The notes beneath the pieces are model-generated. The model did not search any database. It was not told where the DNA came from and saw only the letters and a program-made list of their open reading frames with translations. A stretch of DNA of 64,000 nucleotides. It comes from an uncultured Gemmatimonadota bacterium (GTDB taxonomy: Bacteria; JAAXHH01). The stretch covers positions 640,001-704,000 of the forward strand of contig OX638340.1 of the NCBI GenBank assembly GCA_951812955.1. Direction: 5' to 3'. Shown one piece after another: positions 6,922-47,725 of this stretch. The position numbers and the translations under genes were made by a program. Position 1 is the stretch's first letter, and each line of letters begins with the position of its first letter.

Positions 6922-6950
6922 ATTTAACGCACGGTCCTTTGACGGTGTCA
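6922..6950 (-). promoter_or_regulatory. Putative sigma70-type promoter for gcvT (TTGACA-18 nt-TTAAAT on the minus strand)
   Basis: The reverse complement of 6922-6950 reads TTGACAccgtcaaaggaccgtgcgTTAAAT, about 25 nt upstream of the repeat block. This is a consensus-like -35/-10 with an 18-nt spacer. Promoter architecture of this lineage is not known. Confidence 0.25.
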
Positions 6951-7053
6951 ATACAAAAACGAGATTCGTGATGCGTTTCCGACTGATTGGGACAGACGGA
7001 TATCGCAGGTCAACGAACACGCGTCATCTATCATCAGAAGGAATAACCCGATC

Positions 7054-8841: not shown

Positions 8842-8957
8842 ACAGCCGGATATTCTACTTGACACGGGCTATCAGTGTCCCTTGATTTACAGTGGCTCCA
8901 CGCAAAAATGCTGCTGAACGCCAAGAGCTGAATCGGGTCGCGTACAGAGATAGCTAC

Positions 8958-9905: not shown

Positions 9906-9912
9906 TTTCCGG

Positions 9913-9931
9913 CCGGAGGGGTTTCTCCCGG
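9913..9931 (+). terminator. GC-rich hairpin immediately after the prs stop (possible intrinsic terminator, but no U-tract)
   Basis: ccggagggGTTTctcccgg forms a roughly 7-bp stem with one bulge, 8 nt after the prs stop. No downstream T-run follows, so its function as a terminator is uncertain. Confidence 0.2.
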
Positions 9932-14786: not shown

Positions 14787-15051
14787 TACACGCCTCCCGG
14801 TCCCTGTCGAACATATCGGTTATCGCCTCTATCGCAGCCGTTTCGTCCGGGCCTTCGATTTCCACCGTAATGGAACAGCCGTGTTCTGCAGCCAGCATCA
14901 TTACACCCATGATGCTCTTTCCATTAACCGGCACTTCGTCCTTGACCAGCGTGATATCCGATTCGAATCGGGAAGCCAAGCGGACCAGTTGTTCGGCGGG
15001 TCGCATGTGCAACCCTTTTCTATTCTTAACGGTAACGGTTTTCCGTACCAA
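14776..15051 (-). CDS. ptsH: Phosphocarrier protein HPr
   Basis: 91 aa. The His15 region is KNRKGLHMRPAEQLV and the Ser46 regulatory region is VNGKSIMGVMML. Overlaps ptsI by 11 nt. Confidence 0.85.
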   Translation of the reverse strand: MVRKTVTVKNRKGLHMRPAEQLVRLASRFESDITLVKDEVPVNGKSIMGVMMLAAEHGCSITVEIEGPDETAAIEAITDMFDRDREACNER

Positions 15052-15089
15052 GGCGCTGCCCGATTCATTCAGACGTAGGTGAGATGCTT

Positions 15090-16073: not shown

Positions 16074-16155
16074 CGTTATTTATCAAGGGGAAAGGTATGT
16101 ACCTGGTCCGGCATGGCAAATCCGGCTATATCGATACCGGCGCATGCCTGTCCGC

Positions 16156-16461
16156 TTACTGATTACGCCTAGTCCTGTGATCGTGCAACTTGCCATTGTG
16201 TTTTTTTATCTGGCTTTCCATCTTGTTGACCGCCTGATCGAGTGCGGTGTAGGCTTCGGCGTTCTCCTCCTTGCTGGTCAGGATGTGTCCCCCGACGTGT
16301 ACGTTCAGCTCAACCATATACCGGTATTTTTCCTGTGAGACGATAAGATCCGCACTCAGGATATTGTCGCTGTAACGGTTTAAACGGTCGATCTCTCTAT
16401 CCGCGTGCTGCTTGTATTCCTCTGCCAATTCGCAGTGGCGGGCCGTCATGGTTTTCTGCAC
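16156..16461 (-). CDS. hpf: Ribosome hibernation-promoting factor / sigma-54 modulation protein (short HPF)
   Basis: 101 aa. Shows the RaiA/HPF fold pattern and sits immediately downstream of rpoN, the conserved position. Confidence 0.85.
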   Translation of the reverse strand: MQKTMTARHCELAEEYKQHADREIDRLNRYSDNILSADLIVSQEKYRYMVELNVHVGGHILTSKEENAEAYTALDQAVNKMESQIKKHNGKLHDHRTRRNQ

Positions 16462-16493
16462 GTTCGCCTCCCTTCCCTGTGTTGCCGATCCGG

Positions 16494-17951
16494 TCAGATC
16501 CTTCTGCGCATTCGCGCAATGGGTATTCCCAGGTTCTCGCGGTACTTCGCCACCGTTCGCCGCTTGATCTGCACGCCCTCCTTCGATCGCAGGATGTCCT
16601 CGATAGCCTGATCACTCAGTGGCGCGTGCGCGTCTTCTTCATCGATGATCTGTGCGATCCGGTCCTTGACAGTCTTTGTTGCCAGTTGGCCGTCCGGGAC
16701 GTCTTCGGCGTTATTCGACGTTTTTTTCTTCAATCGACCATCGAAGAAAAACCTCAGCGCGTAAATCCCTCGGGGAGTCTGTACGTACTTGCCTTGCGTC
16801 GCCCGGCTGACGGTCGTTACATGCAGGCCTGCCTCGTCTGCCACCTCCTGAAGAATCATCGGTCTGAGAAAGGACAGGCCCGCATCCAGGAACTCGCGCT
16901 GGGCTTTAACGATGCAGTTCGTCACTTTCAACAAGGTAGACCGACGTTGTTCAATGGAGCTCACGAAGTGATTCGCTTCGGTCAACTTTCGCCTCACGTA
17001 CCGCCGATCCTCTTCTGTGGAATGCTCATGACGGCTCAGGATGACCTGGTACGCACGGCTGACTCGCACCCGGGGGAGGTTGCGGTCGTTGAGATACGCG
17101 ATGTATTCTCCCTCCACTTTTTCAACAATCAGGTCGGGGTGAATGGCAATTACGGATGAATCCCCGTAGGCAAGCCCGGGGTGGGGATTGAGTCCCGCGA
17201 CCACATTCAAGGCATCCCCGATTTCTTTCTCGGATGCCCCCATCTTCTTGCGAATCGAAGCGATGCGCCGCAATTTGACGTCGCGCCAGTTTTCGGAAAT
17301 CATCCGGAACGCGAGCGTATCATGCAAGTCCAGTGCATCCAACTGAAGCATGAGACACTCTCGCAGGTCTCGCGCGCCCACACCGGTAGGTTCGAGGGTC
17401 TGTACGATCTTCAGGACCCGTTCCGCCTCGTCGAACGGTAAGCCAGACTCCAGCGCCAGGTCAAGCAACGGAACATCGAACAGGCCGCTGTCGTTCAGAT
17501 TTCCGATCAGGTATTCACCGATCTCAAGATCCCGTGTGGACAGATCCAGGAGACGCAATTGCTCGACGAGGTACTGTGTGAGCGTTGCCCCCGACTTCCC
17601 CTCGCGTTCAAGGATGTTTTGATCTTCCCGTTTTTCAGACTCTTCGCGGGAATCCATCTGGTTGTGCATGCCGTCTTGTATATAGGCATCCCAGTCGATT
17701 TTATCCCGATCGGACGTCATTTCTCCAGGGTCGTCCTCACGCGTCGCATCCGGTTCCTCCGCCAGAGATTCGCCCGCTGAATCTTCCTCCGCCTCACGTG
17801 TCTCGTCTTCAAGTTCCAGCAGCGGATTCTCCTCGATTTTCGCCTTGATCTCCTGTTCGAGTTCCACCGTGGTGTACTGCAGCAGTTTGAGCGAGTACAT
17901 CAACTGTGGAGAAAACTGCTGTCTTGTCTGCGGCTGAAGCTGGAATTCCAT
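16494..17951 (-). CDS. rpoN: RNA polymerase sigma-54 factor
   Basis: 485 aa. Has the C-terminal RpoN box (RRTVAKYRENLGIPIARMRRRI), an HTH, an N-terminal Gln/Leu-rich region I and an acidic region II. Confidence 0.9.
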   Translation of the reverse strand: MEFQLQPQTRQQFSPQLMYSLKLLQYTTVELEQEIKAKIEENPLLELEDETREAEEDSAGESLAEEPDATREDDPGEMTSDRDKIDWDAYIQDGMHNQMDSREESEKREDQNILEREGKSGATLTQYLVEQLRLLDLSTRDLEIGEYLIGNLNDSGLFDVPLLDLALESGLPFDEAERVLKIVQTLEPTGVGARDLRECLMLQLDALDLHDTLAFRMISENWRDVKLRRIASIRKKMGASEKEIGDALNVVAGLNPHPGLAYGDSSVIAIHPDLIVEKVEGEYIAYLNDRNLPRVRVSRAYQVILSRHEHSTEEDRRYVRRKLTEANHFVSSIEQRRSTLLKVTNCIVKAQREFLDAGLSFLRPMILQEVADEAGLHVTTVSRATQGKYVQTPRGIYALRFFFDGRLKKKTSNNAEDVPDGQLATKTVKDRIAQIIDEEDAHAPLSDQAIEDILRSKEGVQIKRRTVAKYRENLGIPIARMRRRI

Positions 17952-17966
17952 GGTCTTGCCTTCCGG

Positions 17967-18740
17967 TTACTCCAGGCGGAACCGCTCGCCGAGATAAATA
18001 CGGCGCGCTTCTGGGTCATCGGCCAGGTGTTCGGCCGTTCCGGACACGTAAATCCGCCCTTCGGCCATGATATAGGACCGGTCCGTGATCTGTAACGTTT
18101 CCCGGACCATGTGATCCGTGACCAGTATGCCCAGGTTTCTTTTCTTCAGGCGCCCGATGATCTCCTGTATATCCTCCACGGCAATGGGATCGATGCCGGC
18201 AAATGGCTCATCGAGCAGTATGAATTTCGGTTCGGTTACCAGTACCCGGCTGATTTCGGTTCTACGCCGTTCGCCCCCCGATAGGGTGTAAGCCTTGTGC
18301 TTGGCCAGGTGCGCAATGCCGAAATCCTCCAGTAATGCCTCCATCTTCTGTCGCCTGGCCTTGCGGGACATGGGCAGGGTCTCGAGAATGGACATCAGGT
18401 TCTGTTCCACCGTCATCCGGCGAAAGATCGAGGGTTCCTGGGCCAGATACCCAATCCCGACGCGGGCCCTGCGGTACATGGGCCAACGTGTGATTTCCCT
18501 GCTCTTCCCGGTTTCCAGGTCATCGATCAGTACCCGTCCCGATCCCGGCTTGATCATGCCTACGATCATGTAAAACGAGGTGGTCTTCCCTGCTCCGTTG
18601 GGCCCGAGCAGTCCGACCACCTCGCCCTGGTCTACACGTAAGCTCACATCGTCGACCACGCGGTGATTCTGATAGGATTTGACCAGGCTCTCAGCTCGCA
18701 GGCACCGCACGAACCCTCCGTTTTCAACGGCTTCCGTCAT
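17967..18740 (-). CDS. lptB: LPS export ABC transporter ATP-binding protein
   Basis: 257 aa. Has Walker A (GPNGAGKTT), signature (LSGGERRR) and Walker B (ILLDEPFAG) motifs. Lies between lptA and rpoN, the conserved position. Confidence 0.9.
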
Positions 18741-20037
18741 CGTCTTCCGGTGTGAGATAGGTCCCGTCGACCCCGCCGTCCGCGTTCACCTTGACCGGCT
18801 CGCCGCCATCCAGTTCAATCACGATTTCTTTCGCCCGGACCACGTTGTGGCCGGACGGCCCGCTTTCGAGCGTAGACGGATTGTAGTTGCTCACCGCATT
18901 CCCGTTCGCAGTTATGGTCCTGACCGCTTCGTCGTCGAAATCCACGATCATGCTACGGCCTTCAATAGTGCTGCGGTCCGTTCCTTCCGTCTTCTCCACG
19001 GCATAGGTACCCTTGGCGTTCCCGGTTACCAACGCTTTTGTAACCTTGCCGTCTTCCATTTCGAGGACGATTTCATCCCCGGCGATCTCGCTGTGGACGC
19101 TCCGAATCACCGGATTCCCGATCAGATCGATCTTCAGGCCTTCGCCGTCGAAGCGCAAGGTATCGCAAATCCCTTCCAGCGTACCCTTCACGACTTTGAC
19201 CGAATCGAACACATCGGCAGTTCGATCTTCGAATCCATAGGTCATTCCGTTCCCCGTCACCTCGATTTCGCCTTCGTCGCTTCCCAGACTCCTTACCATT
19301 CGGGGCGAGCCACTGAATCGCGCGTTTTGCGTGGCTTTGTAGTACTCCGCGTGGTCGCAGTAAATTGTCACCCCTTCCCCTTCGTCCACCACCACGACGG
19401 AATCCTCAGCCAGCGCTTTCAGCAGGGTGTTGGATTCGGTGAAATAGTACTCGAGACGAAAGCCCTCGATGTTTATCCTGCTGCTGCCCTGTTGCCAGGT
19501 CATAGCCGGCTTGCCCGTCGCGACAGCGCGATGCGGTTCCTGGGTAAATACCATTCTGTGGCCGGTCAGCACCACGCCGTCCAACTCGTCGTCGAGCTTG
19601 ACCCGCCCCGCTCCGATAGCCCGTTGATCCTGTTCGTAGTATACCGCGGCTTCGGCGCTGAACGTACTGGTCTCGCGTACCATGCGCACGTTTCCGGCGA
19701 GATGCACGATTCCGTTCAGGCGGTCATAACGTACCCTGTCACTGGTCAGCACGGTATTTCCGTGCGACAGTCGCACGGAACCGGCCAGGTCGAAAACCTC
19801 ATCGACACCGGTAGCCCGGAGGACGCCCGCTTCTTCGATTTGCACCGGCTCGCGCCGCTCCTGGCCCGCCGCCCGCGGAGTAAATAACGCAGCGAGACAG
19901 CAGACTGAAACCAGCCACGCGACATGCCTGTTTACAAGGTAGAATATACCTGAATTCCGGCTGGACGTCAAGGGTGTCTCCCCGGCGTGACGGCTATGGA
20001 AGCGATCCGAGTCGACGGGGTCATCGCGACTGCGCAT
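18724..20037 (-). CDS. lptA: LptA/OstA-family periplasmic LPS-transport protein, unusually long (tandem OstA-like beta-jellyroll repeats). The start is uncertain.
   Basis: OstA-like repeats ([19 protein letters not shown]..., [11 protein letters not shown]...). A hydrophobic signal-like segment ([20 protein letters not shown]) follows a long charged N-region. The in-frame Met at 20037 (17-nt overlap with lptC) is chosen over 20133 (113-nt overlap). Confidence 0.6.
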
Positions 20038-20632
20038 CCGGTAAAAGCTGGCCTTTAATGTTGCGTCGTATAGTCCATTGGTGCATGCCCGGATCGGCTT
20101 CAAAGCCGTCGCCTGATATGATATCCCGGTCACTGGTCAAACGAACCGCGGCATCCGTTTCAATCACGTTCGCCGCGTTTATCCAGGTCAGGGAATCGGT
20201 TTCCAGGGTGCCTCGCTCCAAACTGTAGACGTTTACATCACCCCAGACACGCAGGTCGTGGGTCTGTCCGTCGATTTCACCCCGCTCGGCTTCCAGCGTC
20301 GAGGCCATTCCGCCGTCTTCTTCGAAGAATTCAACGAAAACGCCCTCGTCGATGACGGTTACGTTGGTTTCGGAGTAATACAGCCGGTGTCCGGCCCTGA
20401 TCGTGGCTTCCTGCCTTCCATCCCGGCTAAGGTAGATCGTCGTGTTCCACGCTTCCTGGTCCGGCGACACATCCTCCGTGCCGTTCTCCGGAGCCAGCTG
20501 ATCGACGGGCCGGCAGGCAGTTGAACATATGATCGCAACCACGACCAGACTTGCCAGAAAAAAGCGGGAAAGCCTTTCCGGTGCAGGGAGATTCAGGCGG
20601 GGCCAAACTTGTGAGAGATGCGAATTCGACAT
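20021..20632 (-). CDS. lptC: LPS export system protein LptC (N-terminal membrane anchor plus periplasmic beta-jellyroll)
   Basis: 203 aa. Has a single N-terminal TM (FFLASLVVVAIICSTA). Its size and its position upstream of lptA-lptB fit LptC. Confidence 0.65.
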   Translation of the reverse strand: MSNSHLSQVWPRLNLPAPERLSRFFLASLVVVAIICSTACRPVDQLAPENGTEDVSPDQEAWNTTIYLSRDGRQEATIRAGHRLYYSETNVTVIDEGVFVEFFEEDGGMASTLEAERGEIDGQTHDLRVWGDVNVYSLERGTLETDSLTWINAANVIETDAAVRLTSDRDIISGDGFEADPGMHQWTIRRNIKGQLLPDAQSR

Positions 20633-26010: not shown

Positions 26011-27468
26011 ATGCTGGACTGTCTGACGGAACGCGGAACCGTGTCCGCCGACGTTGAAGCCTTCGAAAACGCACTGGCGTGCTCGCCAGAGAGCCCCTAC
26101 GGCCCGCTGGGAGCGCGATTCTCCGTCAAAAAACCGATTTATGTGGTCAGGGCTCCAGCGCGGCTGGACTGCATGGGTGGCATAGCGGACTACAGTGGTT
26201 CACTGGTTTGCGAGATGACACTCGACCAGGCCGTTTTGTTGGGCATCCAGGCACGGGACGACCGGAAGGTGGTCATACACAGCGCGGGCGTCGACGTACT
26301 CGGCATGTCGCCGGACGTTACGCTGGCCCTCGACGACCTGGCACCCGGTGGAAGTACCGTAGACTACGATACCGTAAAACGTAGTTTCTCCCGGACGCCG
26401 GAATCGGCCTGGGCAGCGTACGTGGCCGGGGCTTTCAGCGTGTTGCAGGGGGAAAGGCACGTGGATCGTTTCCCCCACGGCGCCACCATCGTGCTCGTGA
26501 GCGACATCCCGCTTCGGGTGGGCGTCTCTTCCTCAGCCGCGCTGGAAATCGCCGCCATGCAGGGACTGAACCTGCTCTACGGGACCGACCTTGACGGGAT
26601 GACGCTGGCCGTCCTTTCCCAGAAGGTGGAAAACCACGTGGTCGGCGCGGCCTGCGGCATCATGGACCAGGTCACCTGCGCCATGGGGACCCGGGACTGC
26701 CTGCTTTCCCTGTTCTGCCAGCCCCATACCGTACAGGAACAGATTCCCTTGCCGGAAGGGGTTCGTTTTATCGGTATAAACTCCGGCGTCCGTCGGGAGA
26801 TCAAGAGCTCGCGGTATACAAACAGCCGAATCGGCGCGTTCATGGGCCTTGCGATCATACGGGATAACCTGCGTTCCGGCAACGGAACGGCCTCAAATCC
26901 CCGCCTTGGTTACCTGTGCAATCTGTCCACCAGAGAATACGTGGATTTCTACCGATCCCTGCTGCCATCAAGCATCCTGGGGCGGGAGTTTACGCGGCGG
27001 TACGTAACCACGCCCGACCCGGTGACGACCGTTGACCCGGCGGTACGGTATATGGTGCGCAGCCGCGTGGAACACCCGGTTTACGAACACCGCAGGGTGA
27101 AAGAATTCACCGAATGTATCCGTTCGGCAGGAACCACGGACAAACCGGGACTTCTCGAGCGGGCAGGCAGGTTGATGTATGCCTCCGACTGGAGTTACAC
27201 GCACCGCTGCGGACTCGGCTGCGCCGAGACGTCCTGGATCGTCCGCGAGATCAGGAAACTGGGCGTTGAAGCGGGATTCTATGGCGCCAAGATAACGGGA
27301 GGCGGCGCTGGGGGAACGGTCGCCGTAGCCGGAGACGATCGCATGTTCGGCCACCTGGACAACCTGCTCGAGCGCTACGGTGAATCCACCGGTATCGAGG
27401 CACGGCTCTTTAACGGGACTTCGTCGGGCGCACTGGAATTCGGGCACCGAGTCTACCGAATAACCTGA
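26011..27468 (+). CDS. GHMP-family sugar-1-kinase (fucokinase/galactokinase/arabinokinase-like)
   Basis: 485 aa. The N-terminal RAPARLDCMGGIADYSG resembles the fucokinase/GalK RAPARIDLAGGWSD/GEHTDY motif. Has the GHMP motif 2 (PLRVGVSSSAALE) and motif 3 (GAKITGGGAGGTV). Confidence 0.7.
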   Translation: MLDCLTERGTVSADVEAFENALACSPESPYGPLGARFSVKKPIYVVRAPARLDCMGGIADYSGSLVCEMTLDQAVLLGIQARDDRKVVIHSAGVDVLGMSPDVTLALDDLAPGGSTVDYDTVKRSFSRTPESAWAAYVAGAFSVLQGERHVDRFPHGATIVLVSDIPLRVGVSSSAALEIAAMQGLNLLYGTDLDGMTLAVLSQKVENHVVGAACGIMDQVTCAMGTRDCLLSLFCQPHTVQEQIPLPEGVRFIGINSGVRREIKSSRYTNSRIGAFMGLAIIRDNLRSGNGTASNPRLGYLCNLSTREYVDFYRSLLPSSILGREFTRRYVTTPDPVTTVDPAVRYMVRSRVEHPVYEHRRVKEFTECIRSAGTTDKPGLLERAGRLMYASDWSYTHRCGLGCAETSWIVREIRKLGVEAGFYGAKITGGGAGGTVAVAGDDRMFGHLDNLLERYGESTGIEARLFNGTSSGALEFGHRVYRIT

Positions 27469-27502
27469 GCGGGTTGCACCGGATTCGAGGGAGTTGCAGG
27501 CA

Positions 27503-28420
27503 TTGAATCGTATTCGAAAAGCGGTCATACCCATTGCGGGACACGGCATCCGCATGATGCCGGCGACCCGTGCGGTACGCAAAGCGCTGTTTCCCATCGT
27601 GGACGACCGCGGACGGGTACGTCCCGTACTTCAGTTGATCATCGAGGAAGCGCTCAACGCGGAAATCGAGGAAATCGGCCTGGTGATCGCACCGGAAGAC
27701 AAGGCCCATATTGGCGCCTACTTCTCGCGGTTGCCCGGCCCGTTAAAAAAAGTAATTGGAAATCACGAAGAATTGCTGGAAGCGGCCGAGTTGCCGGGTC
27801 GTATTGCGGATAAACTGACCATAATCACCCAGGATCGCCCCAACGGACTCGGCGATGCCGTACTCCGAGCGGCGCCCTGGATCGGCGGCGACCCTTTCCT
27901 GGTCATGCTCGGTGACCACCTGTACCTCAGCCATGAAAAAAGATGCTGTGCGCGCCAGTTGCTGGACGCCTACGCGGATCTGCAGGCCCCGGTATCGGGT
28001 TTGATCCGCAAGCCCGTAGATGCCATCGGACATTTCGGCACGGTTTCAGGTCGACCCGAACCCCGCTCGAAAGGGCTTTATGCCCTTGACGCCGTGGTGG
28101 AAAAACCGGATATAAACCTTGCGCGTGACCGGTTGCGCGTGGAGGGGCTGCCGAAAGATACGTATTACTGCTGGTTTGGCCTGCACGCCATGAAGCCTGA
28201 CATCTTCGACTGCCTGGCGCGGATGGAAAGGGACGGCGCCGCGGATGGCGGAGAACTGCAGCTGACCGGGGCGCAGGCCATGTTATCGAAGCAGCGAACA
28301 ACCTACGGACTGGAAATCAACGGCGAGCACTTCGACACAGGCTCGCCGCGTGGATACGTCGATGCCGTCACGGCTTTCGCCGATCCCGCCGGTTTTTCCG
28401 GGAATCCTGACAACCGGTAA
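27503..28420 (+). CDS. Sugar-1-phosphate nucleotidyltransferase (GalU/UDP-sugar pyrophosphorylase-like)
   Basis: The N-terminal KAVIPIAGHGIRMMPATRAVRKALFPIV matches the GalU KAVIPAAGLGTRFLPATK..PKEMLPIV signature. There is no in-frame ATG before this motif. A TTG at 27503 with a GAGGGAG Shine-Dalgarno 9 nt upstream is the likely start (the ORF-track entry begins at the TTG at 27494). It begins 35 nt after the kinase stop. Confidence 0.7.
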   Translation: MNRIRKAVIPIAGHGIRMMPATRAVRKALFPIVDDRGRVRPVLQLIIEEALNAEIEEIGLVIAPEDKAHIGAYFSRLPGPLKKVIGNHEELLEAAELPGRIADKLTIITQDRPNGLGDAVLRAAPWIGGDPFLVMLGDHLYLSHEKRCCARQLLDAYADLQAPVSGLIRKPVDAIGHFGTVSGRPEPRSKGLYALDAVVEKPDINLARDRLRVEGLPKDTYYCWFGLHAMKPDIFDCLARMERDGAADGGELQLTGAQAMLSKQRTTYGLEINGEHFDTGSPRGYVDAVTAFADPAGFSGNPDNR

Positions 28421-28533: not shown

Positions 28534-29250
28534 ATGTCTGTACCGGAAGCTCCATCACGAGAAACGCTCGAATCCCTGCTCATACCGAGCACCGCTACGC
28601 TGACTTCCGTGCTCACGGAGTACGGGCTGTATAACACCTTCATGCACGACGTCACACCGCTCGAACCCGGCGCGCGCATGGCGGGACCGGCATTTACCCT
28701 GCGGTACATACCCGGCCGGGAAGACATCACGCACGTGCCCGTGGACAATCTGACGGATATGCAGCGCATCGGCATCGAAAGCATTCAGCAGGGCGAGGTG
28801 CTCGTGATCGACGCACGGGGTGATACCCGAGCCGGCGTCATGGGCGACATCCTCGCCACGAGAATCCAGCAGCGCGGGGCCGCGGGGGTCGTCAGCGACG
28901 GCGCATTCCGGGATACTCCGGCCATCGTGGAGACCGGAATGGCCGCGTACGCCCGGACCATGAACGCCCATAACAGCAAAAGCGTACATTATCCGAGTGA
29001 CATTCAGCGTCCCATCGCCTGCGGCGGTGTAGCGGTTTTCCCTGGAGATATCGTCGTGGGAGATACAGAAGGCGTGGTGGTCATTCCGCGCCACCTGGCC
29101 GAAGAAGTGGCGGCCAAGGCCGTCGCGCAGGAAGACCGGGAAGTGTTCATCCTGGAGAAAATCCAGCAGGGACACAGCATCATCGGCGTATACCCGCCCG
29201 ATGAGCAAACCCTCGCGGAATACGAGGCGTGGAAGGCTAAAAGGGGCTGA
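28534..29250 (+). CDS. RraA-family protein (regulator of RNase E activity A / 4-hydroxy-4-methyl-2-oxoglutarate aldolase-like)
   Basis: 238 aa. Shows the RraA/MenG-like swivelling beta/beta/alpha pattern (GDVLVIDARGD..AGVMGDILA...GAAGVVSDGAFRD). Confidence 0.65.
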   Translation: MSVPEAPSRETLESLLIPSTATLTSVLTEYGLYNTFMHDVTPLEPGARMAGPAFTLRYIPGREDITHVPVDNLTDMQRIGIESIQQGEVLVIDARGDTRAGVMGDILATRIQQRGAAGVVSDGAFRDTPAIVETGMAAYARTMNAHNSKSVHYPSDIQRPIACGGVAVFPGDIVVGDTEGVVVIPRHLAEEVAAKAVAQEDREVFILEKIQQGHSIIGVYPPDEQTLAEYEAWKAKRG

Positions 29251-29254
29251 ACGC

Positions 29255-31570
29255 TCAGCCGGTGGCCAAATCCGCGATTCGTTGCAGGGCCACCACCGCC
29301 AGCAGTCTCTCCTCGGCGTGCAGGGCCCTGTTCCGGCCTTCGGATTCCAGGCCCGACAGTACCCTGTACGCTAGTTCCACCCCTTCCAAACCCGCCGAAG
29401 AATCTCCCGCAGGCGCCGCATCCACGGCAGAAACGTCCGGTAAATCGGTACGCACCGTGCGAAGTACTTCCCTTGCGATTTCGACGAGTTGCTTCAGCAT
29501 CTCACCGGTTTGTTGCCGTTCGAAAGCGGCCATCGCCCGGTCGACTGCGGCCGTGTACCGATCCCTCGCATCTCGCTCGACATGTGACCAGCCGCCCAGT
29601 TGCCGGCGGACGGACCGGAATAACCGTACCGTCGACCGGTCCTGGTTCATCTCACCGGCCTGAAGCAACTGATACAGGAGATCCGGGGCGCCAAGGAGAT
29701 GCCCCGCCGACATGATCAGTACACCGCGTTCGAGACTGGTTTCGCTGGTCCTGATGAGGTCCTGAAGCCGGCTCAGTATCCCGGTATTGCCCATTCTGGC
29801 CAGCGTTTCCAGGGTAGTCTGGACGATCGCGGGGTCCCGTTCGTGTTCGAGCAGGGCTTCCAGCGCCGTCTCAACGCGCCGGTCCCCGATTCGATCGAGG
29901 GCGATTACGGCGCTTCGCCGGATGCCGGGGCGTTCATCGTGAAGCAGGGTCACCAGGATGTTGAGGCTGAGCGACGACGGCACCGAGCCCAGGGCCTCCA
30001 CGGCCTCCTCGGCGATGTCAGACGATGGGTTTCCCACGCATTCGAGCAGTGGGTTCACGGCCTCTTCCGCGCCGATCCTGCTCAGGGACTGCACTGCTTC
30101 CCGCCGCACGTTGCGATCGCTGTCATCCAGCAACGCGATCAACTCGTCCACAGCCAGGTGACTTCCGGTTTCGCCCAGTTCACGGGCCGCCCGGGCCCGG
30201 ACCGTTGGATTGCTGGATTTTCCCATGCGCACCAGGTGCCAGAGGGTCGCAATGGGATTCCCCTTGCGCACCCGGTTGATCACGTCACGGGGGGAGACCT
30301 GCGAATCGGAGACCAGGCGGGCCAGCAGGCCCATGTAGGATATTCGAAGCACCCCGTTGGCGAGGAAGAGGTATTGCAGTCCCGCGAAGGTGTAGCCGAA
30401 GAAGGATACGGCAGGTATGGAGGTACACAGTTCGGCGGCTATTCCACCGATTATGGCGCCGCACGCCGCGCATCCTCTCGATACCGCGGAGTAGCATCCC
30501 AGGAATGCGGAGCGGTTGGCCGCCGGGGCCGTTTTGACGATGAGATTGAACCGGGCCGTACCCCATCCCGCGCTCATGCTGCCGCCCCAGATCTGCACCA
30601 GCGGCACCATGACCCAGTAGTTGTCCAGCGTTACGAATCCCCATCCCAGCGGGAAAATGGCCAGTCCCGTGGCGGTAAGCGACATGACCGGCTTGTAACC
30701 GTACTTGTCCGCCAGGTAGCCCCAGAATGGATTCATGATGATCGTCGCGATAGTTTGTATTGCCGAGAAAACCGCGATCTGGGCGTAGGATACTTCGAGC
30801 GTCCGCAGCATGTAGACCGTGAAGAATGGCGCGGCGATCTGGGCGATGACGAGCCGCCCTGAAACCAGGAACATCAATTTGCGAAAAGGAGCGTGCCGGA
30901 AGGGGAGACGAAGCAGCTGGTTCGGCGGGACGCGCTCGCCCCTGCTCTTTCGCGGTTCGGGAATGCACGACCAGGCCCAGATCCCGAATCCTGAAAAGAC
31001 CACGGCCACGATGAATATGATACTGAAACCCTCCTGCGAGTCGCCCGCGGCGTATGTACTCAGGAAGAATCCCGCGCACACCGACGTGATCAGGCCGGCG
31101 GACGCCGTCAGGCTGCGCTGGCGCGCGACGAAGCGGCCGCGGATCTCGTCGGGAATCAGGTCGGTCAGCCAGGACTGACGCGCCGGAGAAACCAGGGACA
31201 TGGCGGCTTTCGATAAAGCGATGCAGGCTATGAGCGCCAGTAGTTGGTTCCCTTCGAAGAAGAGAAAGGGAATGAAGGCGATGGGCAGCCAGAGGGATGT
31301 GCTGACGCCATTGGCAAGCAGGCACAGCGTTTTGCGCCGGGGCAGGCGTTCGATAAGTAGCGGAGAGAAAGCCTGTAACAACTGACCGATGGAAATGGAG
31401 GCGGAAATAAAGCCGATCATGGCGGTGGATGCACCGAGATGCAGGGCGTAACCGGTGGTGTAAACGCCGGTGGTTATCGCGGAATGGACCGACTCGAGCA
31501 TGCCGTTCACGTTCCACATGCGCATTCCGCGCGCCGTCTGCAACCGGGTCAGTTTTCTCTCTTGTTGCAC
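29255..31570 (-). CDS. Fusion protein: N-terminal MFS transporter (about 12 TM) plus C-terminal HEAT/PBS-lyase-like repeat domain
   Basis: 771 aa. The first roughly 420 aa are polytopic (MFS-like, two 6-TM halves, with a GYLADKYGYKP loop). The C-terminal roughly 350 aa carry repeated DxxxxVRxxAxxALxxIG units (NVRREAVQSLSRIG, RPGIRRSAVIALDRIG, NPTVRARAARELGETG) typical of PBS-lyase HEAT-like repeats. Confidence 0.65.
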   Translation of the reverse strand: MQQERKLTRLQTARGMRMWNVNGMLESVHSAITTGVYTTGYALHLGASTAMIGFISASISIGQLLQAFSPLLIERLPRRKTLCLLANGVSTSLWLPIAFIPFLFFEGNQLLALIACIALSKAAMSLVSPARQSWLTDLIPDEIRGRFVARQRSLTASAGLITSVCAGFFLSTYAAGDSQEGFSIIFIVAVVFSGFGIWAWSCIPEPRKSRGERVPPNQLLRLPFRHAPFRKLMFLVSGRLVIAQIAAPFFTVYMLRTLEVSYAQIAVFSAIQTIATIIMNPFWGYLADKYGYKPVMSLTATGLAIFPLGWGFVTLDNYWVMVPLVQIWGGSMSAGWGTARFNLIVKTAPAANRSAFLGCYSAVSRGCAACGAIIGGIAAELCTSIPAVSFFGYTFAGLQYLFLANGVLRISYMGLLARLVSDSQVSPRDVINRVRKGNPIATLWHLVRMGKSSNPTVRARAARELGETGSHLAVDELIALLDDSDRNVRREAVQSLSRIGAEEAVNPLLECVGNPSSDIAEEAVEALGSVPSSLSLNILVTLLHDERPGIRRSAVIALDRIGDRRVETALEALLEHERDPAIVQTTLETLARMGNTGILSRLQDLIRTSETSLERGVLIMSAGHLLGAPDLLYQLLQAGEMNQDRSTVRLFRSVRRQLGGWSHVERDARDRYTAAVDRAMAAFERQQTGEMLKQLVEIAREVLRTVRTDLPDVSAVDAAPAGDSSAGLEGVELAYRVLSGLESEGRNRALHAEERLLAVVALQRIADLATG

Positions 31571-31573: not shown

Positions 31574-33079
31574 CTACAGTCTCCGGTTCCTGGACAGTAT
31601 CCAGCTTACCGCCGTACCGACGGCAAGATTCACGCCCAATGCCATCGGACTGATCCACATGAAGCTGACTGGGTCGCTCCCATCGGGCAGCATGCCGAAC
31701 AGCGGCCCGGAGAAGGCGATCAGCGAAGCGGTGAGGATGCCGCACACGGCGCCCGCGACGACGCCGGCCGGGCGGGCGAACGGCACGAACAACGCGAAGA
31801 CGAACAGGGCGAAAATGGGCGTCGTCAGCAGGTTCGAAGTCTTGTTGGTTACCGCCGTGATGTTGCCGGGCACCAGTTCCATCAGCGAGCTCGCGCCCAC
31901 GACAATGGCGCCGATGACGAATGCGAGCGATTTCGCCGTCCGCGTCAGCTGTTTCTCGGTCGCCGGGGATTTTCTGAACCGGCCGATGAAATCCGTCGAA
32001 ACCACTGCCGTAATAGCGTTGACCCCCGAGTCCAGGCTCGACATGGCGGCTGCGAACATGGCGGCTACCACGAATCCGGACACGCCGGGGGGAAGATAGT
32101 AGGCAATGTAATGGGGGAACACGTGGTCCGCCCGGCCGGCCAGGTCGGTACTGGCGGGCAGCAGATCGGGCTGGGCCTGGAAGAAGCCCAGGAGCGCGAA
32201 ACCGGCCACCCACAGGGTGATCCCGATGCAGAGCCCCACCAGTTGCTGGGTCAGGTACGACCGCCGGGCCGCGCGGGCGTCGGTCGTCGCCATGAAGCGC
32301 TGTACCACGGTCTGGTCTCCCCCGGCCGTGGCTATGGCCCACGTCATGGACGCCAACATGGATCCGATCACGGTCAGTCGCACGGACGGGTCCAGACTGA
32401 AGACCGGCTGTTCGTCCCAGTGAGGCTGCCAGGAATTCGGAATCCAACCGAATCCGTCGAAATGCATGGTAACCGTGACGATAACCAGGATGGCGCCTCC
32501 GAGCATGAGCAGGGTTTGCATCGTATCGGTGATCACCACCGCCCGCAGGCCGCCGAGTGAGGTGTAAACAACCGCGACGAACCCGGTAACCAGCGTGATG
32601 GCGGGGATCCAGTCATCTCCCACGCCCAGCATGACCGTCATGGCCTTGGCGGACAGGTAGATCAGGAGGGCCATCCAGACCAGTCGGAGCAGGATGAACA
32701 TGACCGCGCCCAGCAGGCGGATGCCCACGCCGAGCCGATCCTCCAGCAGCTCATAGGCGCTCGTAACGCGCGTCCGCATGTAAACCGGGATCAGTACGTA
32801 GCCCACCACCACGAAGATGATCGGGATCGTCAGGTAGTTGAGCATCCAGACGGGCCCCTTGCCGATGGCCTCGCCCGGGATGGACAGGTAGGAGATCGTG
32901 CTGAGCAGGGTGGCGAACAGTGAGAAGCCGATCAGCGTCGGCGGCATGTTCCCCCCGCCGGTGAAATACTCGCTGACCGTGCTTTGCCTTCGGCTGTAAT
33001 AGTATCCCAGCGAGATGGTCGCGAAGGCGTATCCGACGATGATGGTCCAGTCGACGAGCGTCAGTCCGCCGGAGGGCAT
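31574..33079 (-). CDS. Sodium:solute symporter (SSS/SLC5 family)
   Basis: About 500 aa from Met21 (MPSGGLTLVDWTIIVGYAFATISLGYYYSRR...), a canonical SSS N-terminus. An alternative Met at 33139 would begin 1 nt after the pyk stop. The stop lies 3 nt before the MFS::HEAT start. Confidence 0.85.
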   Translation of the reverse strand: MPSGGLTLVDWTIIVGYAFATISLGYYYSRRQSTVSEYFTGGGNMPPTLIGFSLFATLLSTISYLSIPGEAIGKGPVWMLNYLTIPIIFVVVGYVLIPVYMRTRVTSAYELLEDRLGVGIRLLGAVMFILLRLVWMALLIYLSAKAMTVMLGVGDDWIPAITLVTGFVAVVYTSLGGLRAVVITDTMQTLLMLGGAILVIVTVTMHFDGFGWIPNSWQPHWDEQPVFSLDPSVRLTVIGSMLASMTWAIATAGGDQTVVQRFMATTDARAARRSYLTQQLVGLCIGITLWVAGFALLGFFQAQPDLLPASTDLAGRADHVFPHYIAYYLPPGVSGFVVAAMFAAAMSSLDSGVNAITAVVSTDFIGRFRKSPATEKQLTRTAKSLAFVIGAIVVGASSLMELVPGNITAVTNKTSNLLTTPIFALFVFALFVPFARPAGVVAGAVCGILTASLIAFSGPLFGMLPDGSDPVSFMWISPMALGVNLAVGTAVSWILSRNRRL

Positions 33080-33140
33080 GGCGCCTCGCTTCCGTTCGTG
33101 GGCATATGCAGTATATCCAAAGACACCGAAAAAACACAAT

Positions 33141-34565
33141 CTACGGTATGGCGGCGACTCGCAGAAAGTCGGTATGACCAGGGCCCGCCGCGGGCGATCC
33201 GCCGACGATGACTATATGGTCCCCCCGGACCAGGCCACCGGCCTCCCGGGCCGCGTCGATCGACGTGCGAATCATGCCGTCGGTTCCGTCCGGCGAATCG
33301 AACTCTTCGCACTGCACGGGTTTGACGCCCCATACCAGGGCGAGACGTCGGACAGTTTCCTCATCCGGGCTCACCGCGATGACCGGAACGTTGATTCGGT
33401 ACCGGGCGGCCATCCGGGCGGTGTGGCCGGACCGCGTGCAGCAGACGATGGCCTTCGCGCGTGATTCCCGGGCAAGCACGCAGGAAGCGTGGCTGATGGC
33501 ACCGGAAACACCGTGCGTTTCGAATGGTCCAGACATACCGCCGGGCTTACGCTGGAACAGTCTTTCCTCGGCCTGTTCCGCGATGGCCGCCAGTGCGCGC
33601 ACCGCTTCCACCGGATAGGCGCCGATGGCGCTTTCTTCCGATAACATCACGGCATCCGATCCGTCGAGGACGGCATTGGCCACGTCCGCGGCCTCGGCCC
33701 GGGTGGGCCTGGGACTTTCGACCATGGAACGCAGCATCTGCGTCGCGGTGACCACGGGCCGTGCCGCGTGCAGGGCCTTGGTTATGATGTCCTTCTGTAC
33801 CAGCGGGACTTCCTGGTACGGTATTTCCACGCCCAGGTCTCCTCTCGCGACCATGAGCGCATCCACGGCCGGCAGGATGTCGTCGAGCGCATCCACGGCC
33901 TCCGGTTTCTCTATCTTCGCCATCAACGGCAGGCTCGAACCCCGGCTGTCCAGCAATGCGCGTGCGCTCATCACGTCCTTGCGGTTGCGGACGAAGGAAA
34001 GGGCGGCCATGTCCACACCCATGTCGAGCCCTTCCACCAGCAGGTCCCGGTCTTTCTCCGTGAAGGCGGCAATGCCCGACGCGCCGCGTGGTACCGTGAT
34101 GCCCTTGTGATCGGACAATATACCTCCCAGGAGCACCTTGCATCGTATATCGGGAGGTTCCACGGCCTGAATGCGCAACTCGACCAGCCCGTCCGCGAGC
34201 AAAAGGCGTTGCCCGGCTCGCACCTCGTCGGCCAGTTGCGCGTAGTTGACCGGGATGCGGGTCCGGTCTCCGGTCACGCGATCCGTAGTGAGGGTAATCT
34301 CTTCGCCCGCTCCCAGGGTTACGGGGCCGTCCCGGAATGTTCCAATGCGGATCTTGGGGCCGGGCAGGTCCTGAAGAACGGCGACGGGTTTACCGAGATC
34401 GCCCGCGGCGGATCGAATACGACGGACGCAGTCGCTATGTTCGTCGGGCGTGCCATGGGAGAAATTGAGCCGGAAGACATCGACGCCCGCTTCGAGTACC
34501 CGGCGGATCATATCGGATGAACTGATCGCGGGACCCACGGTGCAAACGATTTTGGTGCGTCGCAT
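33141..34565 (-). CDS. pyk: Pyruvate kinase
   Basis: 474 aa. Has the signature (MRRTKIVCTVGPA..., MVARGDLGVEIP) and a C-terminal allosteric domain. Confidence 0.9.
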   Translation of the reverse strand: MRRTKIVCTVGPAISSSDMIRRVLEAGVDVFRLNFSHGTPDEHSDCVRRIRSAAGDLGKPVAVLQDLPGPKIRIGTFRDGPVTLGAGEEITLTTDRVTGDRTRIPVNYAQLADEVRAGQRLLLADGLVELRIQAVEPPDIRCKVLLGGILSDHKGITVPRGASGIAAFTEKDRDLLVEGLDMGVDMAALSFVRNRKDVMSARALLDSRGSSLPLMAKIEKPEAVDALDDILPAVDALMVARGDLGVEIPYQEVPLVQKDIITKALHAARPVVTATQMLRSMVESPRPTRAEAADVANAVLDGSDAVMLSEESAIGAYPVEAVRALAAIAEQAEERLFQRKPGGMSGPFETHGVSGAISHASCVLARESRAKAIVCCTRSGHTARMAARYRINVPVIAVSPDEETVRRLALVWGVKPVQCEEFDSPDGTDGMIRTSIDAAREAGGLVRGDHIVIVGGSPAAGPGHTDFLRVAAIP

Positions 34566-34655
34566 CGGCTGGTCCTTCTGCGTGCCGTTCGCGTATAGGG
34601 GACCGGCCAGGTGCGGGTACGGCGGATGGTCCGGACCGCATCGCGCGTCCGGGGG

Positions 34656-37600
34656 TTACTTCAACACCCCGATGCGCGCGACATGCCCGCCGAGTTTGAG
34701 TTCGCCGGCGTGCACATCCACAGGTACGGGCTCCTCGCGCAGTTCCGTTGAAAGCGTTTCGGTCCTGATGTAGTCCGCGTGGGCGTCTATGGCCTCGGCC
34801 AGATCGCCTTCGGCTTCGTAGAACAGGGTAATCCTGTCGTTCACGTTGAAATCCGCTTCCTTGCGCATATTCTGCACATGACGGACAAAATCCCGCATCA
34901 ATCCCTCGAGGAGGAGATCGCGGGTGACCCTGGTGTCAATGGCGACCGTGCAGCCAAAGTCGGATGTCACCGCGAGCCCGTCCGCATCCACCCGTTCGAC
35001 AACGAGCTCCTCAGGCGTCAGCTCGACCTGTTCGCCGTCCACTTCAAGCGAAAGGGACCCGCCCGCCGCGACACGGGCACCGGTTTCGTGGCCGTCCAGC
35101 ACCTCGAGCGCCTGGCGCACGGCATTCAAACGCTTGCCGAACCGGGGACCCCATTTTGAAAAATCCGGTTTCACGGCGTACCCGCGAAAGGCATCCTCAT
35201 TATCGACCAGGTCCAGGTCCTTCACATTCAGTTCTTCCAGGATCTGAGCGCGCAGCCGCGTCAGGGTGTCTCCCTGCCGGGCGGTCGCGGGTTTCACCAG
35301 CAGGCGCAACGCGGGCTGGCGGACCTTCATCCGGGCTTCGTTGCGAACCGCGCGGCCCAGTTCGATCACCTGCATCAGGTCTTCCATGTCGTCCATGAGG
35401 TCCTGGTCGATCAATTCCTCGGAGACCTCCGGGTATCTGCAGAGATGGACGCTTGATGGCGCTGAAGAATCGATGGGCGGAACCAGGCTCTGATAGAGTT
35501 CCTCCGCGGAGAAAGGCAGAATAGGCGCGATCAGCTTGCTCATCGTGACCAGAACTTCGTAGAGCGTCTGGATGGCCGATTGCTTGTCCGCGTCATCGCC
35601 GCTCTTCCAGAACCGGCGCCTGCTCCGGCGGACGTACCAGGTGGAAAGCACGTCCATGAACCGTTCGGTTTCGCGTACCACGGTCGCCGAATCGAAATTA
35701 TCCAGCCGGTCGTTGCAGAGTCGGACCAGTTGATTGAGCCGGGAAAGCACCCACCTGTCGAGTTCGCTACGGCCCGAAACAGGAGCTGAGGCAGAAATGG
35801 GAGGGCAGTCCGGCAGATTGGCGTAGGTCACGAAGAAAGCGTATACGTTCCACAACCTGAGCATTTTCCGCATGACGTCTTCGGCGGGTCCATAGCCGAA
35901 CCGGAAGACCATGTTCAGCGGCGCGCCAGCGTATTGCCATCTCATCACATCGGCGCCCATACGGGCGGTGGCGTCCTCCACGGCGATCGCGTTATCGCCG
36001 CTCTTGCTGAAGGGTTCCCCGTTCTCGTCCCGCATTTCTTCGAAGGTGAGTACCGCCTTGAACGGGGTCCGGTCGTACAGGGTCACCGACATGAACAACT
36101 GGGAATAGAACCACAGCCTGATCTGTTCGCGCATTTCCGTGATCCAGTCAGCGGGAGACCATGATTCCCAGGCAGTATCCGTGCCGTTGCGGGAAACTCC
36201 GGTCTTGTCCCTTTCGGCCTCGGGCCCCCGTTCCGACCGGATCGTGCCATTGATCCCGCGGTGCTCCGGCAGATAGTTCAATGTTGAAAAAGGGACGATT
36301 CCCGCGTCGAGCCAGCAGTCCCCGACTTCGGTCACCCGCTTTACGGCCTCTCCGCAACGCTCGCAGGAAATCTCGATATCATCGATCCACGGACGATGGA
36401 GTTCGGGCAGCTCTTCGACCAGCGCGGGATTCACGGCCCGCTGCCGCAGTTCGGCCGTGCTGCCGATGACGTTCACGTGATCGCAGTTCCCACAATTGTA
36501 GAAGGGCAGGGGCAACCCCCAGAATCGGCGGCGCGATATGCACCAGTCCCCCATGTTGTCCAGCCAGTCCTGCATCAGGAGGCCGCTGTATTCGGGTACC
36601 CACCGGACCGTCGCGGCGGCCTGCTTCATCGGCGCCCTGATCTCGTCCGCTGAAATGAACCACTCGTCGGCCAGGCGAAAGACCAGCGGAGTCTTGCAAC
36701 GCCAACAGAAGGGATACCGGTGCGTGTAGTCTTCCCAGCGAAACAACACGCCCCTGGATTCCAACTCCCGCCTGACGCCTTCTGCTGATTCCCGTACATG
36801 GGTGGCTGTCAGTGGCCCCATATCGTCTGTGAAATAACCGTTCTCATCAATGGGCACAATGATGGCCAGGCCGAGTTCCTGCCCGAGCTGATAATCCTCG
36901 GCGCCACAGCCCGGTGCGATATGCACGATGCCCGTGCCTTCCTCGTCAGATACCATGTCCCACGGAACGGTGGTGCGGTTGACCTCACGCTGCGCGGGGA
37001 GATCCTCCAGAGGGCCGTGGAAGGGCAGCCCGATCAGATCCTTGCCCTTCACGGTCTCGACCACTACCGCTTCGGGCGGCAGGACGGTCTCGACGAGTGA
37101 CTTCATCAAGTAGTAGTATTCGCCGTCCAGGCTCGCTTTCGCGTATTCGGCTTCAGGATGCAAGGCCAGGGCCGTATTGGCGGTCAGGGTCCACGGCGTA
37201 GTGGTCCAGACCAGGAAATACTCGTCCCTTCGGCCCCCGACCCGGCATCGGAAGAAACAGGATGGATCGGTCTGCTCCTGGTAAGAATCCACCAGCTCGT
37301 GCTGGCTCAGGCTGGTCCCGCACCGCCAGCACCAGGGCATGGAACGGTAACCGCGGTACAGCCATTTCCTGGCGTCGCAGGCCTTCAGAAAATGCCAGAT
37401 ATGCTCGATGTTGTTGTCATCCAGGGTGTAGTAGGAGGCCGGATGGCCGTCGTCGTGGTACCACTGCATCCAGTGTCCCATGCGAATGGACTGCCGCGTT
37501 ATCCGCTCCGCGTACTCGTCCACCCGAGCGCGGCACGCCCGGGAGAACTCGGCGAGACCGAACGACTCGATGTCCCGTTTCGAATCAAAACCAAGCGCCC

Positions 37601-37895
37601 GCTCCACCTCGACTTCCACCCACAAGCCCTGACAGTCGAACCCGTTCTGCCACCGCTGGTTGAATCCCTTCATGGCTTTGTACCGGCAGTACATGTCCTT
37701 GTAGGTCCGGCCCCAGGCGTGATGAACGCCCATGGCGTTATTCGCGGTGATCGGTCCGTCGATAAAGGACCAGGTCGGTCGATCCGCCAATTGTGCTCGC
37801 AGTTTGTCGAAAATCCGATGGTCCTCCCACCATGCGAGGATGCGCTCCTCCATCCGGGGGTATTCCATCTTTCCATCAAAGGGTTTGAATTTCAT
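34656..37895 (-). CDS. ileS: Isoleucine-tRNA ligase, long type-2 (eukaryote/archaeal-like) form
   Basis: 1079 aa. Has the DWCISRRRFWGLPLPFY signature of IleS editing/catalytic core and a class I Rossmann HIGH-like region (PITANNAMGVHHAWGRT). The KMSKS variant (FSKSGDN) and overall length are typical of type-2 IleS. Confidence 0.9.
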   Translation of the reverse strand: MKFKPFDGKMEYPRMEERILAWWEDHRIFDKLRAQLADRPTWSFIDGPITANNAMGVHHAWGRTYKDMYCRYKAMKGFNQRWQNGFDCQGLWVEVEVERALGFDSKRDIESFGLAEFSRACRARVDEYAERITRQSIRMGHWMQWYHDDGHPASYYTLDDNNIEHIWHFLKACDARKWLYRGYRSMPWCWRCGTSLSQHELVDSYQEQTDPSCFFRCRVGGRRDEYFLVWTTTPWTLTANTALALHPEAEYAKASLDGEYYYLMKSLVETVLPPEAVVVETVKGKDLIGLPFHGPLEDLPAQREVNRTTVPWDMVSDEEGTGIVHIAPGCGAEDYQLGQELGLAIIVPIDENGYFTDDMGPLTATHVRESAEGVRRELESRGVLFRWEDYTHRYPFCWRCKTPLVFRLADEWFISADEIRAPMKQAAATVRWVPEYSGLLMQDWLDNMGDWCISRRRFWGLPLPFYNCGNCDHVNVIGSTAELRQRAVNPALVEELPELHRPWIDDIEISCERCGEAVKRVTEVGDCWLDAGIVPFSTLNYLPEHRGINGTIRSERGPEAERDKTGVSRNGTDTAWESWSPADWITEMREQIRLWFYSQLFMSVTLYDRTPFKAVLTFEEMRDENGEPFSKSGDNAIAVEDATARMGADVMRWQYAGAPLNMVFRFGYGPAEDVMRKMLRLWNVYAFFVTYANLPDCPPISASAPVSGRSELDRWVLSRLNQLVRLCNDRLDNFDSATVVRETERFMDVLSTWYVRRSRRRFWKSGDDADKQSAIQTLYEVLVTMSKLIAPILPFSAEELYQSLVPPIDSSAPSSVHLCRYPEVSEELIDQDLMDDMEDLMQVIELGRAVRNEARMKVRQPALRLLVKPATARQGDTLTRLRAQILEELNVKDLDLVDNEDAFRGYAVKPDFSKWGPRFGKRLNAVRQALEVLDGHETGARVAAGGSLSLEVDGEQVELTPEELVVERVDADGLAVTSDFGCTVAIDTRVTRDLLLEGLMRDFVRHVQNMRKEADFNVNDRITLFYEAEGDLAEAIDAHADYIRTETLSTELREEPVPVDVHAGELKLGGHVARIGVLK

Positions 37896-47702: not shown

Positions 47703-47725
47703 GTAACTGGTCCGGTATGATTCGG

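Follow-up and report, generated by a model that had tools for sequence, protein, structure and literature searches.

The GlnK-AmtB and SbtB-SbtA systems each pair a small trimeric nucleotide sensor of the PII fold with a transporter encoded beside it, to which the sensor has been demonstrated to bind. Conserved close pairing of the two genes, as in glnK-amtB and sbtA-sbtB, is typical of such interacting PII-transporter pairs. Another layout is that of the NTT-HEAT proteins, transporters of the major facilitator superfamily (MFS) clan with 12 transmembrane (TM) helices and C-terminal HEAT repeats (PF13646/PF02985), in which a cyclic-nucleotide sensor is often fused to the protein or encoded a few nucleotides (nt) downstream (Major, Embley & Williams 2017, PMC5381601). 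These NTT-HEAT and NTT-HEAT-cNBD proteins are uncharacterised, and their HEAT part has been proposed to act as a module for protein interaction and regulation (PMC5381601). Here we describe a gene that combines an MFS permease with a C-terminal HEAT domain in an uncultured Gemmatimonadota bacterium (assembly GCA_951812955.1, contig OX638340.1, positions 640,001 to 704,000; this stretch of 64,000 nt, or 64 kb, is called the window below, and positions are counted within it). The reading that we prefer, with a probability of about one half, is that this gene encodes a working 12-TM MFS transporter with a cytoplasmic regulatory solenoid, and that its family was ancestrally under the control of cyclic di-AMP (c-di-AMP) and of its PII-like receptor of the DarA/PstA type.

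The fusion gene is a single reading frame with zero internal stops (coordinates of all features are collected in Table 1), and its product matches both sets of profiles above their Pfam cut-offs: MFS_1 (PF07690; E = 1.4e-27, 97 bits versus 33.4) on one side, HEAT_2 (PF13646; 1.1e-28, 99.8 bits versus 27.7) and HEAT_PBS (PF03130; 4.7e-13, 48.6 bits versus 20.9) on the other; the Pfam families HEAT and HEAT_EZ were hit as well. The original prediction, made from this DNA without database searches, that the two parts are fused in frame is borne out by these matches within one open reading frame (ORF) of 771 amino acids (aa). An AlphaFold2 (AF2) model of the protein built from 49 homologues (mean pLDDT 87, pTM 0.70) displays 12 TM helices laid out as 6+6, the loop at the centre lying in the cytoplasm. 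Lys and Arg residues number 21 in the loops predicted to be cytoplasmic versus 1 in the periplasmic ones, and by the positive-inside rule both termini, hence the whole tail, are cytoplasmic, which settles on which side of the membrane the HEAT domain sits. MFS motif A, the conformational-switch motif of the superfamily, is intact as GYLADKYGYKP in the loop between TM8 and TM9; W283, G291 and P294 are invariant among homologues and the core W283/D288/K289/G291/P294 is invariant or nearly so, and a degenerate copy (ERLPRRK) lies between TM2 and TM3. The permease has the MFS fold, with YegT, NupG, MFSD2A, MelB and SPNS2 as structural matches, and, in the absence of a characterised protein closely related to it, its best PDB match by sequence is NorA (E = 3e-10, covering half a domain). 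These sequence and fold neighbours display generic MFS similarity only (9-17% identity) and pointed to no particular substrate. Judged from its sequence, the fusion protein is most likely active in secondary transport.

Behind TM12, a short linker with the family consensus SxRxVIxxVRxGxPLxTLWxLxRM leads into the HEAT repeats, tandem helix-turn-helix units of approximately 31 residues that form a solenoid, and these are followed by a helical cap. The HEAT array had been taken to measure roughly 350 aa, a figure that has to be revised: the canonical repeats span approximately 186 aa (aa 452-637), and the remaining aa 638-771 are helical, with no Pfam match and no 31-aa register. Across the aligned homologues D483, R489, L508, L539, R551 and Y633 are invariant in the repeats. 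The cap contains a disordered loop modelled with low confidence (aa 711-724), and its last helix is conserved (E753, L756, L757, A761). The HEAT repeats change no faster than the permease core; in the closest relatives of the window gene they are conserved as much or more, and the cap diverges faster there. The slow evolution of the repeats argues for a specific function of the tail and against a loose appendage. A second pairing of a membrane permease with HEAT repeats is present elsewhere in the window, where a gene for a MacB-like FtsX permease (57303-59723, plus strand) is followed by a separate gene for a 643-aa HEAT_2 protein (59903-61834, plus strand).

Both domains are present in approximately 70 clusters of full-length homologues, with identities ranging between 98% and 27%. 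All 49 aligned homologues match MFS_1 and HEAT_2, and the fusion is conserved end to end, with invariant residues in the permease, the HEAT repeats and the last helix. Among the best 150 matches of a profile search of 1.84 billion representatives, at least 76 clusters (formed at 50% identity) were full-length fusions. We retrieved 80 genome loci initially (L001-L080) and considered further ones up to L098. The clade of the window gene (L001-L022) consists of metagenome-assembled genomes (MAGs) labelled Gemmatimonadetes or Latescibacterota, plus several complete chromosomes of 3.5-3.9 Mb; the other retrieved loci are mostly from Armatimonadota, and Zixibacteria carry the fusion too, so that its spread, which the original prediction had proposed to survey, extends over these phyla. 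Judged from their names, some of the isolates with the closest matches look sponge- or coral-derived. The complete chromosome closest to the window is OY762445.1, at 98% identity. The proteins are annotated merely as "MFS transporter", and the family is conserved and uncharacterised. Taken alone, the window gene is an ordinary member of it that has lost its informative neighbour.

This neighbour was found in the orthologous subfamily with 38-59% identity. In 12 of its 17 distinct loci (L023-L027, L029, L031, L032 and L084-L087), a gene of the family PF06153 (CdAMP_rec) lies immediately upstream of the fusion on the same strand, and an adjacent PII-like gene was also seen in L096 and L098. The spacing ranges from a 4-nt overlap (L086, L096) to a gap of approximately 125 nt; at one further locus (L030) the DarA-like gene lies 2.4 kb upstream. 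The pair is kept in at least 10 otherwise different gene contexts. De novo clustering of the neighbours in 58 Armatimonadota and other loci yielded no family present in more than 11 of 53, except for the DarA-like gene of this closer subfamily. The association also holds when approached from the other side, as the fusion was directly downstream of both of two DarA-like proteins from contigs not met before (2/2), and five further candidate pairs were recognised by contigs of equal length. The neighbour is a protein of 109 aa that aligns over its full length with PstA of Listeria (Lmo2692, E = 2.7e-20). Most of 13 sequences keep the residues that contact c-di-AMP: R26, T28, the GGFL stretch 34-37 of the T-loop, N41, G47 and the GGA of the B-loop.

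A few other neighbours and relatives deserve mention. A NadE gene (CN_hydrolase + NAD_synthase) is a divergent neighbour in L081-L083; it occurs in one clade only and was taken as a remnant of synteny, as were NadA and Nfo near distant paralogues, likewise restricted to a single clade. In Candidatus Methanoperedens (L091-L093, 1396-7560) we found CutA1, which has a PII-like fold, followed by OtsA/B and by a HEAT-less MFS homologue (30% identity), with a convergent gene for a 630-aa HEAT_2 protein. We considered whether this could be a "split" version of the fusion, and set the idea aside as a lead and not as evidence, the similarity of that HEAT protein to the window tail being generic only. 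L094/L095 encode a HEAT-less MFS homologue of 685 aa, next to which lie the gene of an MFS paralogue of 690 aa and that of a K+ channel containing TrkA_N/TrkA_C (RCK) domains.

In a neighbour-joining tree, the window clade is nested inside the DarA-linked lineages, and its sister group (L023/L085, 58-59% identity) is DarA-linked. The genome of L017, whose fusion is 79% identical to that of the window, holds both genes on one contig and far apart: DarA behind an Aminotran_3 gene at 1.24 Mb, and the fusion behind the SSS (sodium:solute symporter) gene at 0.58 Mb. The same arrangement of Aminotran_3 and DarA directly precedes the fusion in L085, and the two arrangements together indicate that the genes of the pair had come apart in the ancestor of L001-L022. 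The fusion seems to have taken another neighbour along. The RraA-like gene convergent with it in the window has a copy, 74% identical, directly downstream of the fusion in the sister-clade locus L023 (at approximately 8674); such a gene is also found downstream in L085 (9387-10103) and near the fusion in a locus of Zixibacteria (L081, 8476-9204). Its persistence in the sister clade and in Zixibacteria suggests that it moved with the fusion when DarA stayed behind. The stable local unit in the window clade comprises the SSS gene, the MFS-HEAT gene and the convergent RraA-like gene.

We propose that the solenoid, made of the linker, the six HEAT repeats and the cap, is most likely a rigid regulatory module for the docking of proteins, by which transport is coupled to cytoplasmic signalling. 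Its ancestral partner in the orthologous subfamily would be the DarA/PstA-type receptor encoded upstream, whose PII-like trimer may bind the HEAT tail or the cytoplasmic face of the permease in a nucleotide-dependent manner and so gate transport. We favour this docking mechanism because of the analogy with GlnK-AmtB and SbtB-SbtA and because of the architectural parallel with NTT-HEAT proteins bearing a cNBD (PMC5381601). Control of solute transport by c-di-AMP is most likely for the family, with physical docking of DarA as its putative means. A more specific version, in which the HEAT tail itself is the docking platform for the receptor, is a possibility that we put forward tentatively; if it holds, these receptors would gain their first target among membrane transporters, and the pair would represent a third paradigm of PII-transporter regulation next to GlnK-AmtB and SbtB-SbtA. 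In the lineage of the window the pair is broken, the fusion and its RraA-like neighbour now standing 3 nt behind the SSS gene, and the tail would have to act there with another partner or intramolecularly. As to the substrate, an osmolyte or a small metabolite is a guess by analogy with the targets of c-di-AMP elsewhere, weakly echoed by the Methanoperedens HEAT-less homologue, whose gene overlaps, by 17 nt, the end of a gene for a trehalose-6-phosphate synthase fused to the phosphatase.

Several observations weigh against control by DarA. Adjacency of the two genes could mean co-regulation rather than contact, and the neighbour misses the NCBIfam cut-off of the DarA equivalog (104.9 versus 140 bits). 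No DarA gene is adjacent in four loci of the 38-59% subfamily itself (L028, L081, L082, L088), nor in any of the 48 loci of the group with 26-36% identity, which we treated as more distant paralogues, and natural fusions of DarA with the transporter were absent among 264 related proteins. The window holds no DarA gene and no diadenylate cyclase gene; a PII-type gene adjacent to the fusion was found neither there nor in L001-L022, and a c-di-AMP (ydaO) or other riboswitch neither in the window nor in the DarA-less loci. A query with DarA of the window clade returned no cluster on the 3.5-3.9 Mb chromosomes whose fusions are 81-96% identical to that of the window (P0008, P0011, P0016, P0022); given this and the lack of the gene in the window, DarA was probably lost from the closest relatives of the window gene. 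Yet the HEAT repeats encoded on these chromosomes are 87-96% identical to those of the window, and such conservation where DarA is apparently absent implies that the tail has a role independent of DarA.

The main rival explanation builds on these observations. It takes the tail for a domain that regulates or scaffolds on its own, with no physical link to DarA, and ascribes the adjacency of the genes in other phyla to co-expression within a shared stress regulon alone; the tail could then plug the transporter in an autoinhibitory manner, or serve as a platform on which enzymes or another transporter, such as the adjacent SSS protein, assemble. The history of the window clade supports it: in the crown of this clade the HEAT part is as conserved as the permease while DarA is unlinked and apparently absent, and the gene stands translationally close to the SSS gene instead. 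Furthermore, the fusion persists without DarA in the clades L081/L082 and L028/L088 and throughout the paralogue group. What this explanation accounts for poorly is the pair itself, which persists in its many contexts across phyla with an overlap or a gap of at most approximately 125 nt, a closeness resembling that of the interacting PII-transporter pairs, and which was recovered blind from the DarA side. We therefore consider an autonomous tail possible, less probable than a family ancestrally controlled through DarA.

A further alternative, that the MFS part is a non-transporting ligand sensor whose occupancy is relayed by the HEAT tail to cytoplasmic partners, is unlikely in our view. The original prediction had proposed a regulated or trans-signalling, transceptor-like transporter, and the first half of that proposal is the best reading, with independent support from the DarA-like gene adjoining the orthologues in other phyla, while none of our tests favoured the transceptor, motif A being conserved. 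HEAT arrays are indeed scaffolds for protein-protein interaction, and a PII-like signalling protein is the usual neighbour in the family. Against it stand the invariant or nearly invariant core of motif A, the complete 12-TM fold predicted with high confidence, and the observation that an output domain (kinase, cyclase or DNA-binding) is neither fused to the protein nor conserved nearby.

The surroundings of the gene in the window had also been given weight. The order ileS-pyk-SSS-MFS and the gaps originally described are confirmed, all on the minus strand, which had not been stated; the gaps measure 90 nt between ileS and pyk, 1-61 nt between pyk and SSS and 3 nt between SSS and MFS. A divergent gene starting at 38203 and the convergent RraA-like gene delimit the run. 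From this order one could picture a functional unit in which solute uptake is linked with glycolysis (pyk) and translation (ileS), and the shared strand, the short gaps, the lack of terminator-like sites in the intergenic gaps between the four genes (pattern scans, no Rfam match) and the conservation of the order across nearly all loci of the window clade would agree with it. We compared the neighbouring window proteins by tblastn against all retrieved loci. The order occurs only in the window clade (L001-L016, L018, L019, L021 and L022; the contig of L020 ends inside pyk), where it is part of an overall synteny of approximately 20 kb, and none of SSS, pyk and ileS was found near the fusion in L023-L080, so that other phyla have the fusion without them. 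SSS adjoins the fusion in 21 loci of the clade; in the 22nd, L012, the contig begins 116 nt before the fusion gene. Even within the clade the run is not fixed: pyk is absent from its position in L017, where ileS is directly followed by SSS (locus 5118-9927), and in L013 (7271-8413), L014, L016 and L022 pyk and SSS have an unrelated ATPase gene (AAA_14/DUF4143) inserted between them. An order that is confined to one clade, with pyk dispensable, says little on function, and the idea of a meaningful context alongside translation and central metabolism is not upheld; we regard such a functional unit as very improbable. Co-transcription of the four genes is plausible. The scans for promoters and terminators were uninformative, with counts below those expected from shuffled sequence. 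The 90-nt spacer between ileS and pyk contains an inverted repeat (CCGGAC-N10-GTCCGG, 34595-34639, minus strand) with no T-run and no Rfam match.

Two further explanations can be treated briefly. The protein could be a divergent NTT/TLC-HEAT fusion, or a bilin lyase domain of the CpcE/F/NblB type on a membrane anchor; it shares with NTT-HEAT the layout of a 12-TM transporter with C-terminal HEAT repeats, and it has weak NCBIfam matches to the lyases, but the Pfam TLC family (PF03219) was found in 0 of 49 members (E <= 0.01) and not in the window protein (E <= 0.1), its repeats resemble generic PBS-type repeats, and the scores for NblB (NF045915, 42.2 versus 300 bits), CpcE (NF058502, 37.3 versus 330) and CpcF (NF058515, 21.9 versus 220) fall so far below their cut-offs that we rejected an identity as bilin lyase or NblB and hold the whole explanation for highly improbable. 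An error of assembly or a frameshift joining two genes, finally, is excluded as far as assemblies can show, and the fusion is real: more than 20 independent assemblies, the complete chromosomes among them, show the same uninterrupted ORF, full-length homologues reach down to 27% identity in several phyla, and the linker joining both halves is conserved.

Table 1. Coordinates of the fusion gene, of its parts and of neighbouring genes (positions in the window unless a locus is named).
Feature	Position	Strand	Details
RraA-like/aldolase gene	28534-29250	plus	Pfam RraA-like 1.3e-34; NF006093 282.6 bits; stop codon 4 nt from that of the fusion gene
MFS-HEAT fusion gene	29255-31570	minus	771 aa; GTG start; stop codon 29255-29257
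C-terminal helical cap	29258-29659	minus	aa 638-771 (134 aa); from AF2 secondary structure, pLDDT and conservation
Six PBS-lyase-type HEAT repeats	29660-30217	minus	aa 452-637; exact 31-aa period
Linker	30218-30310	minus	aa 421-451; two short helices (427-435, 439-451, AF2) from TM12 to the solenoid
MFS permease domain	30311-31570	minus	aa 1-420; 12 TM helices, both termini cytoplasmic; from AF2 helices and hydropathy
SSS sodium:solute symporter	31574-33139	minus	SSF 2.5e-42; TIGR00813 207.6 bits versus 184; stop TAG 31574-31576
GGAG Shine-Dalgarno-like motif	31581-31584	minus	in the 3'-terminal part of SSS; 10 nt ahead of the GTG; read from the sequence
Pyruvate kinase (pyk)	33141-34565	minus	Pfam PK and PK_C; TIGR01064 505 bits versus 306
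Isoleucine-tRNA ligase (ileS)	34656-37895	minus	TIGR00392 706.7 bits versus 621.4; first gene of the co-directional run
Glutamine-dependent NAD synthetase	L081 1-1609; L082 3707-5998; L083 478-2769		divergent from DarA-less fusion genes; Zixibacteria-related clade

Some other features of the window may be recorded here. Just upstream of the RraA-like gene and co-directional with it, the genes for a GHMP-family sugar kinase (485 aa) and, behind it, a nucleotidyl transferase (26011-28420, plus strand) look like a pair for sugar-1-phosphate activation. On the minus strand, 13026-20133 encodes an LptA-like protein, an ABC ATPase (LptB-like), sigma-54, a ribosome hibernation factor and HPr kinase, with PTS enzyme I further on, the layout of an rpoN region. 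Approximately 900 nt at 46816-47725 hold no convincing ORF according to a crude caller, only short ones, of which one has a GC content at third codon positions of 0.38 versus approximately 0.7 elsewhere; no Rfam family reached its gathering score there. The one RNA gene that was detected in the window encodes tRNA-Phe (GAA; 56746-56820, plus strand).

Control of MFS permeases by dedicated fused cytoplasmic domains is poorly documented in bacteria. If the HEAT tail is itself the docking platform for the receptor, a monomeric MFS permease would have acquired a solenoid adaptor in order to be read by a trimeric sensor, and in the window lineage nature would have produced an "uncoupled" variant with the adaptor retained. 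The cellular targets of the DarA/PstA receptors are not yet settled, a 2026 preprint still calling the function of PstA a longstanding question, and the recurring pair offers a concrete, clonable partner. The pair also suggests that c-di-AMP control of solute transport may reach Armatimonadota and lineages of the FCB (Fibrobacteres-Chlorobi-Bacteroidetes) group through a new adaptor architecture that parallels NTT-HEAT-cNBD. In the window organism, a conserved predicted transporter is thereby recognised next to a Na+/solute symporter.

Compared with described systems, the fusion is not categorically new and varies two familiar themes, the regulation of a transporter through a cytoplasmic domain and the pairing of a PII protein with a transporter; in our literature search, no publication connected an MFS-HEAT protein with c-di-AMP or DarA/PstA. 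YajR from Escherichia coli (PDB 3WDO) resembles the window protein in being an MFS permease that is extended at its C-terminus by a cytosolic domain. In YajR this is a small ferredoxin-like YAM domain, unlike the 350-aa alpha-solenoid found here. The 31-residue repeat type of the tail is that of alphaRep and of the PBS-lyase HEAT-like proteins MTH187, YibA and CpcE/F (with E-values as low as 1e-119 to consensus-designed alphaRep); these proteins are soluble, whereas the window HEAT array is attached to the membrane and stays below the lyase-specific models. The DarA-like neighbour of the orthologues shares PF06153 and the residues contacting c-di-AMP with DarA/PstA of Firmicutes (PDB 4RWW, 4D3H, 4RLE; PMC4475381), but occurs in other phyla and in another gene context, and scores below the equivalog cut-off. 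In the PII-transporter pairs, the order of glnK-amtB, with the sensor first, matches that of the DarA-like and MFS-HEAT genes; AmtB and SbtA are, however, trimeric non-MFS transporters without a HEAT tail, binding in the DarA-like/MFS-HEAT pair is only inferred, and the window gene itself, unlike either system, has no adjacent PII gene. The closest precedent remains NTT-HEAT(-cNBD), whose layout is analogous in its 12 TM helices and its C-terminal HEAT repeats; a putative sensor of a nucleotide second messenger is encoded beside 12 of the 17 orthologues. The permease is TLC/NTT there and MFS_1 here, and the sensor is a cNBD encoded downstream there and a PII-like c-di-AMP receptor encoded upstream here, absent beside the window gene. 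The taxa differ as well, the family described here being carried by Armatimonadota, Zixibacteria and MAGs labelled Gemmatimonadota or Latescibacterota.

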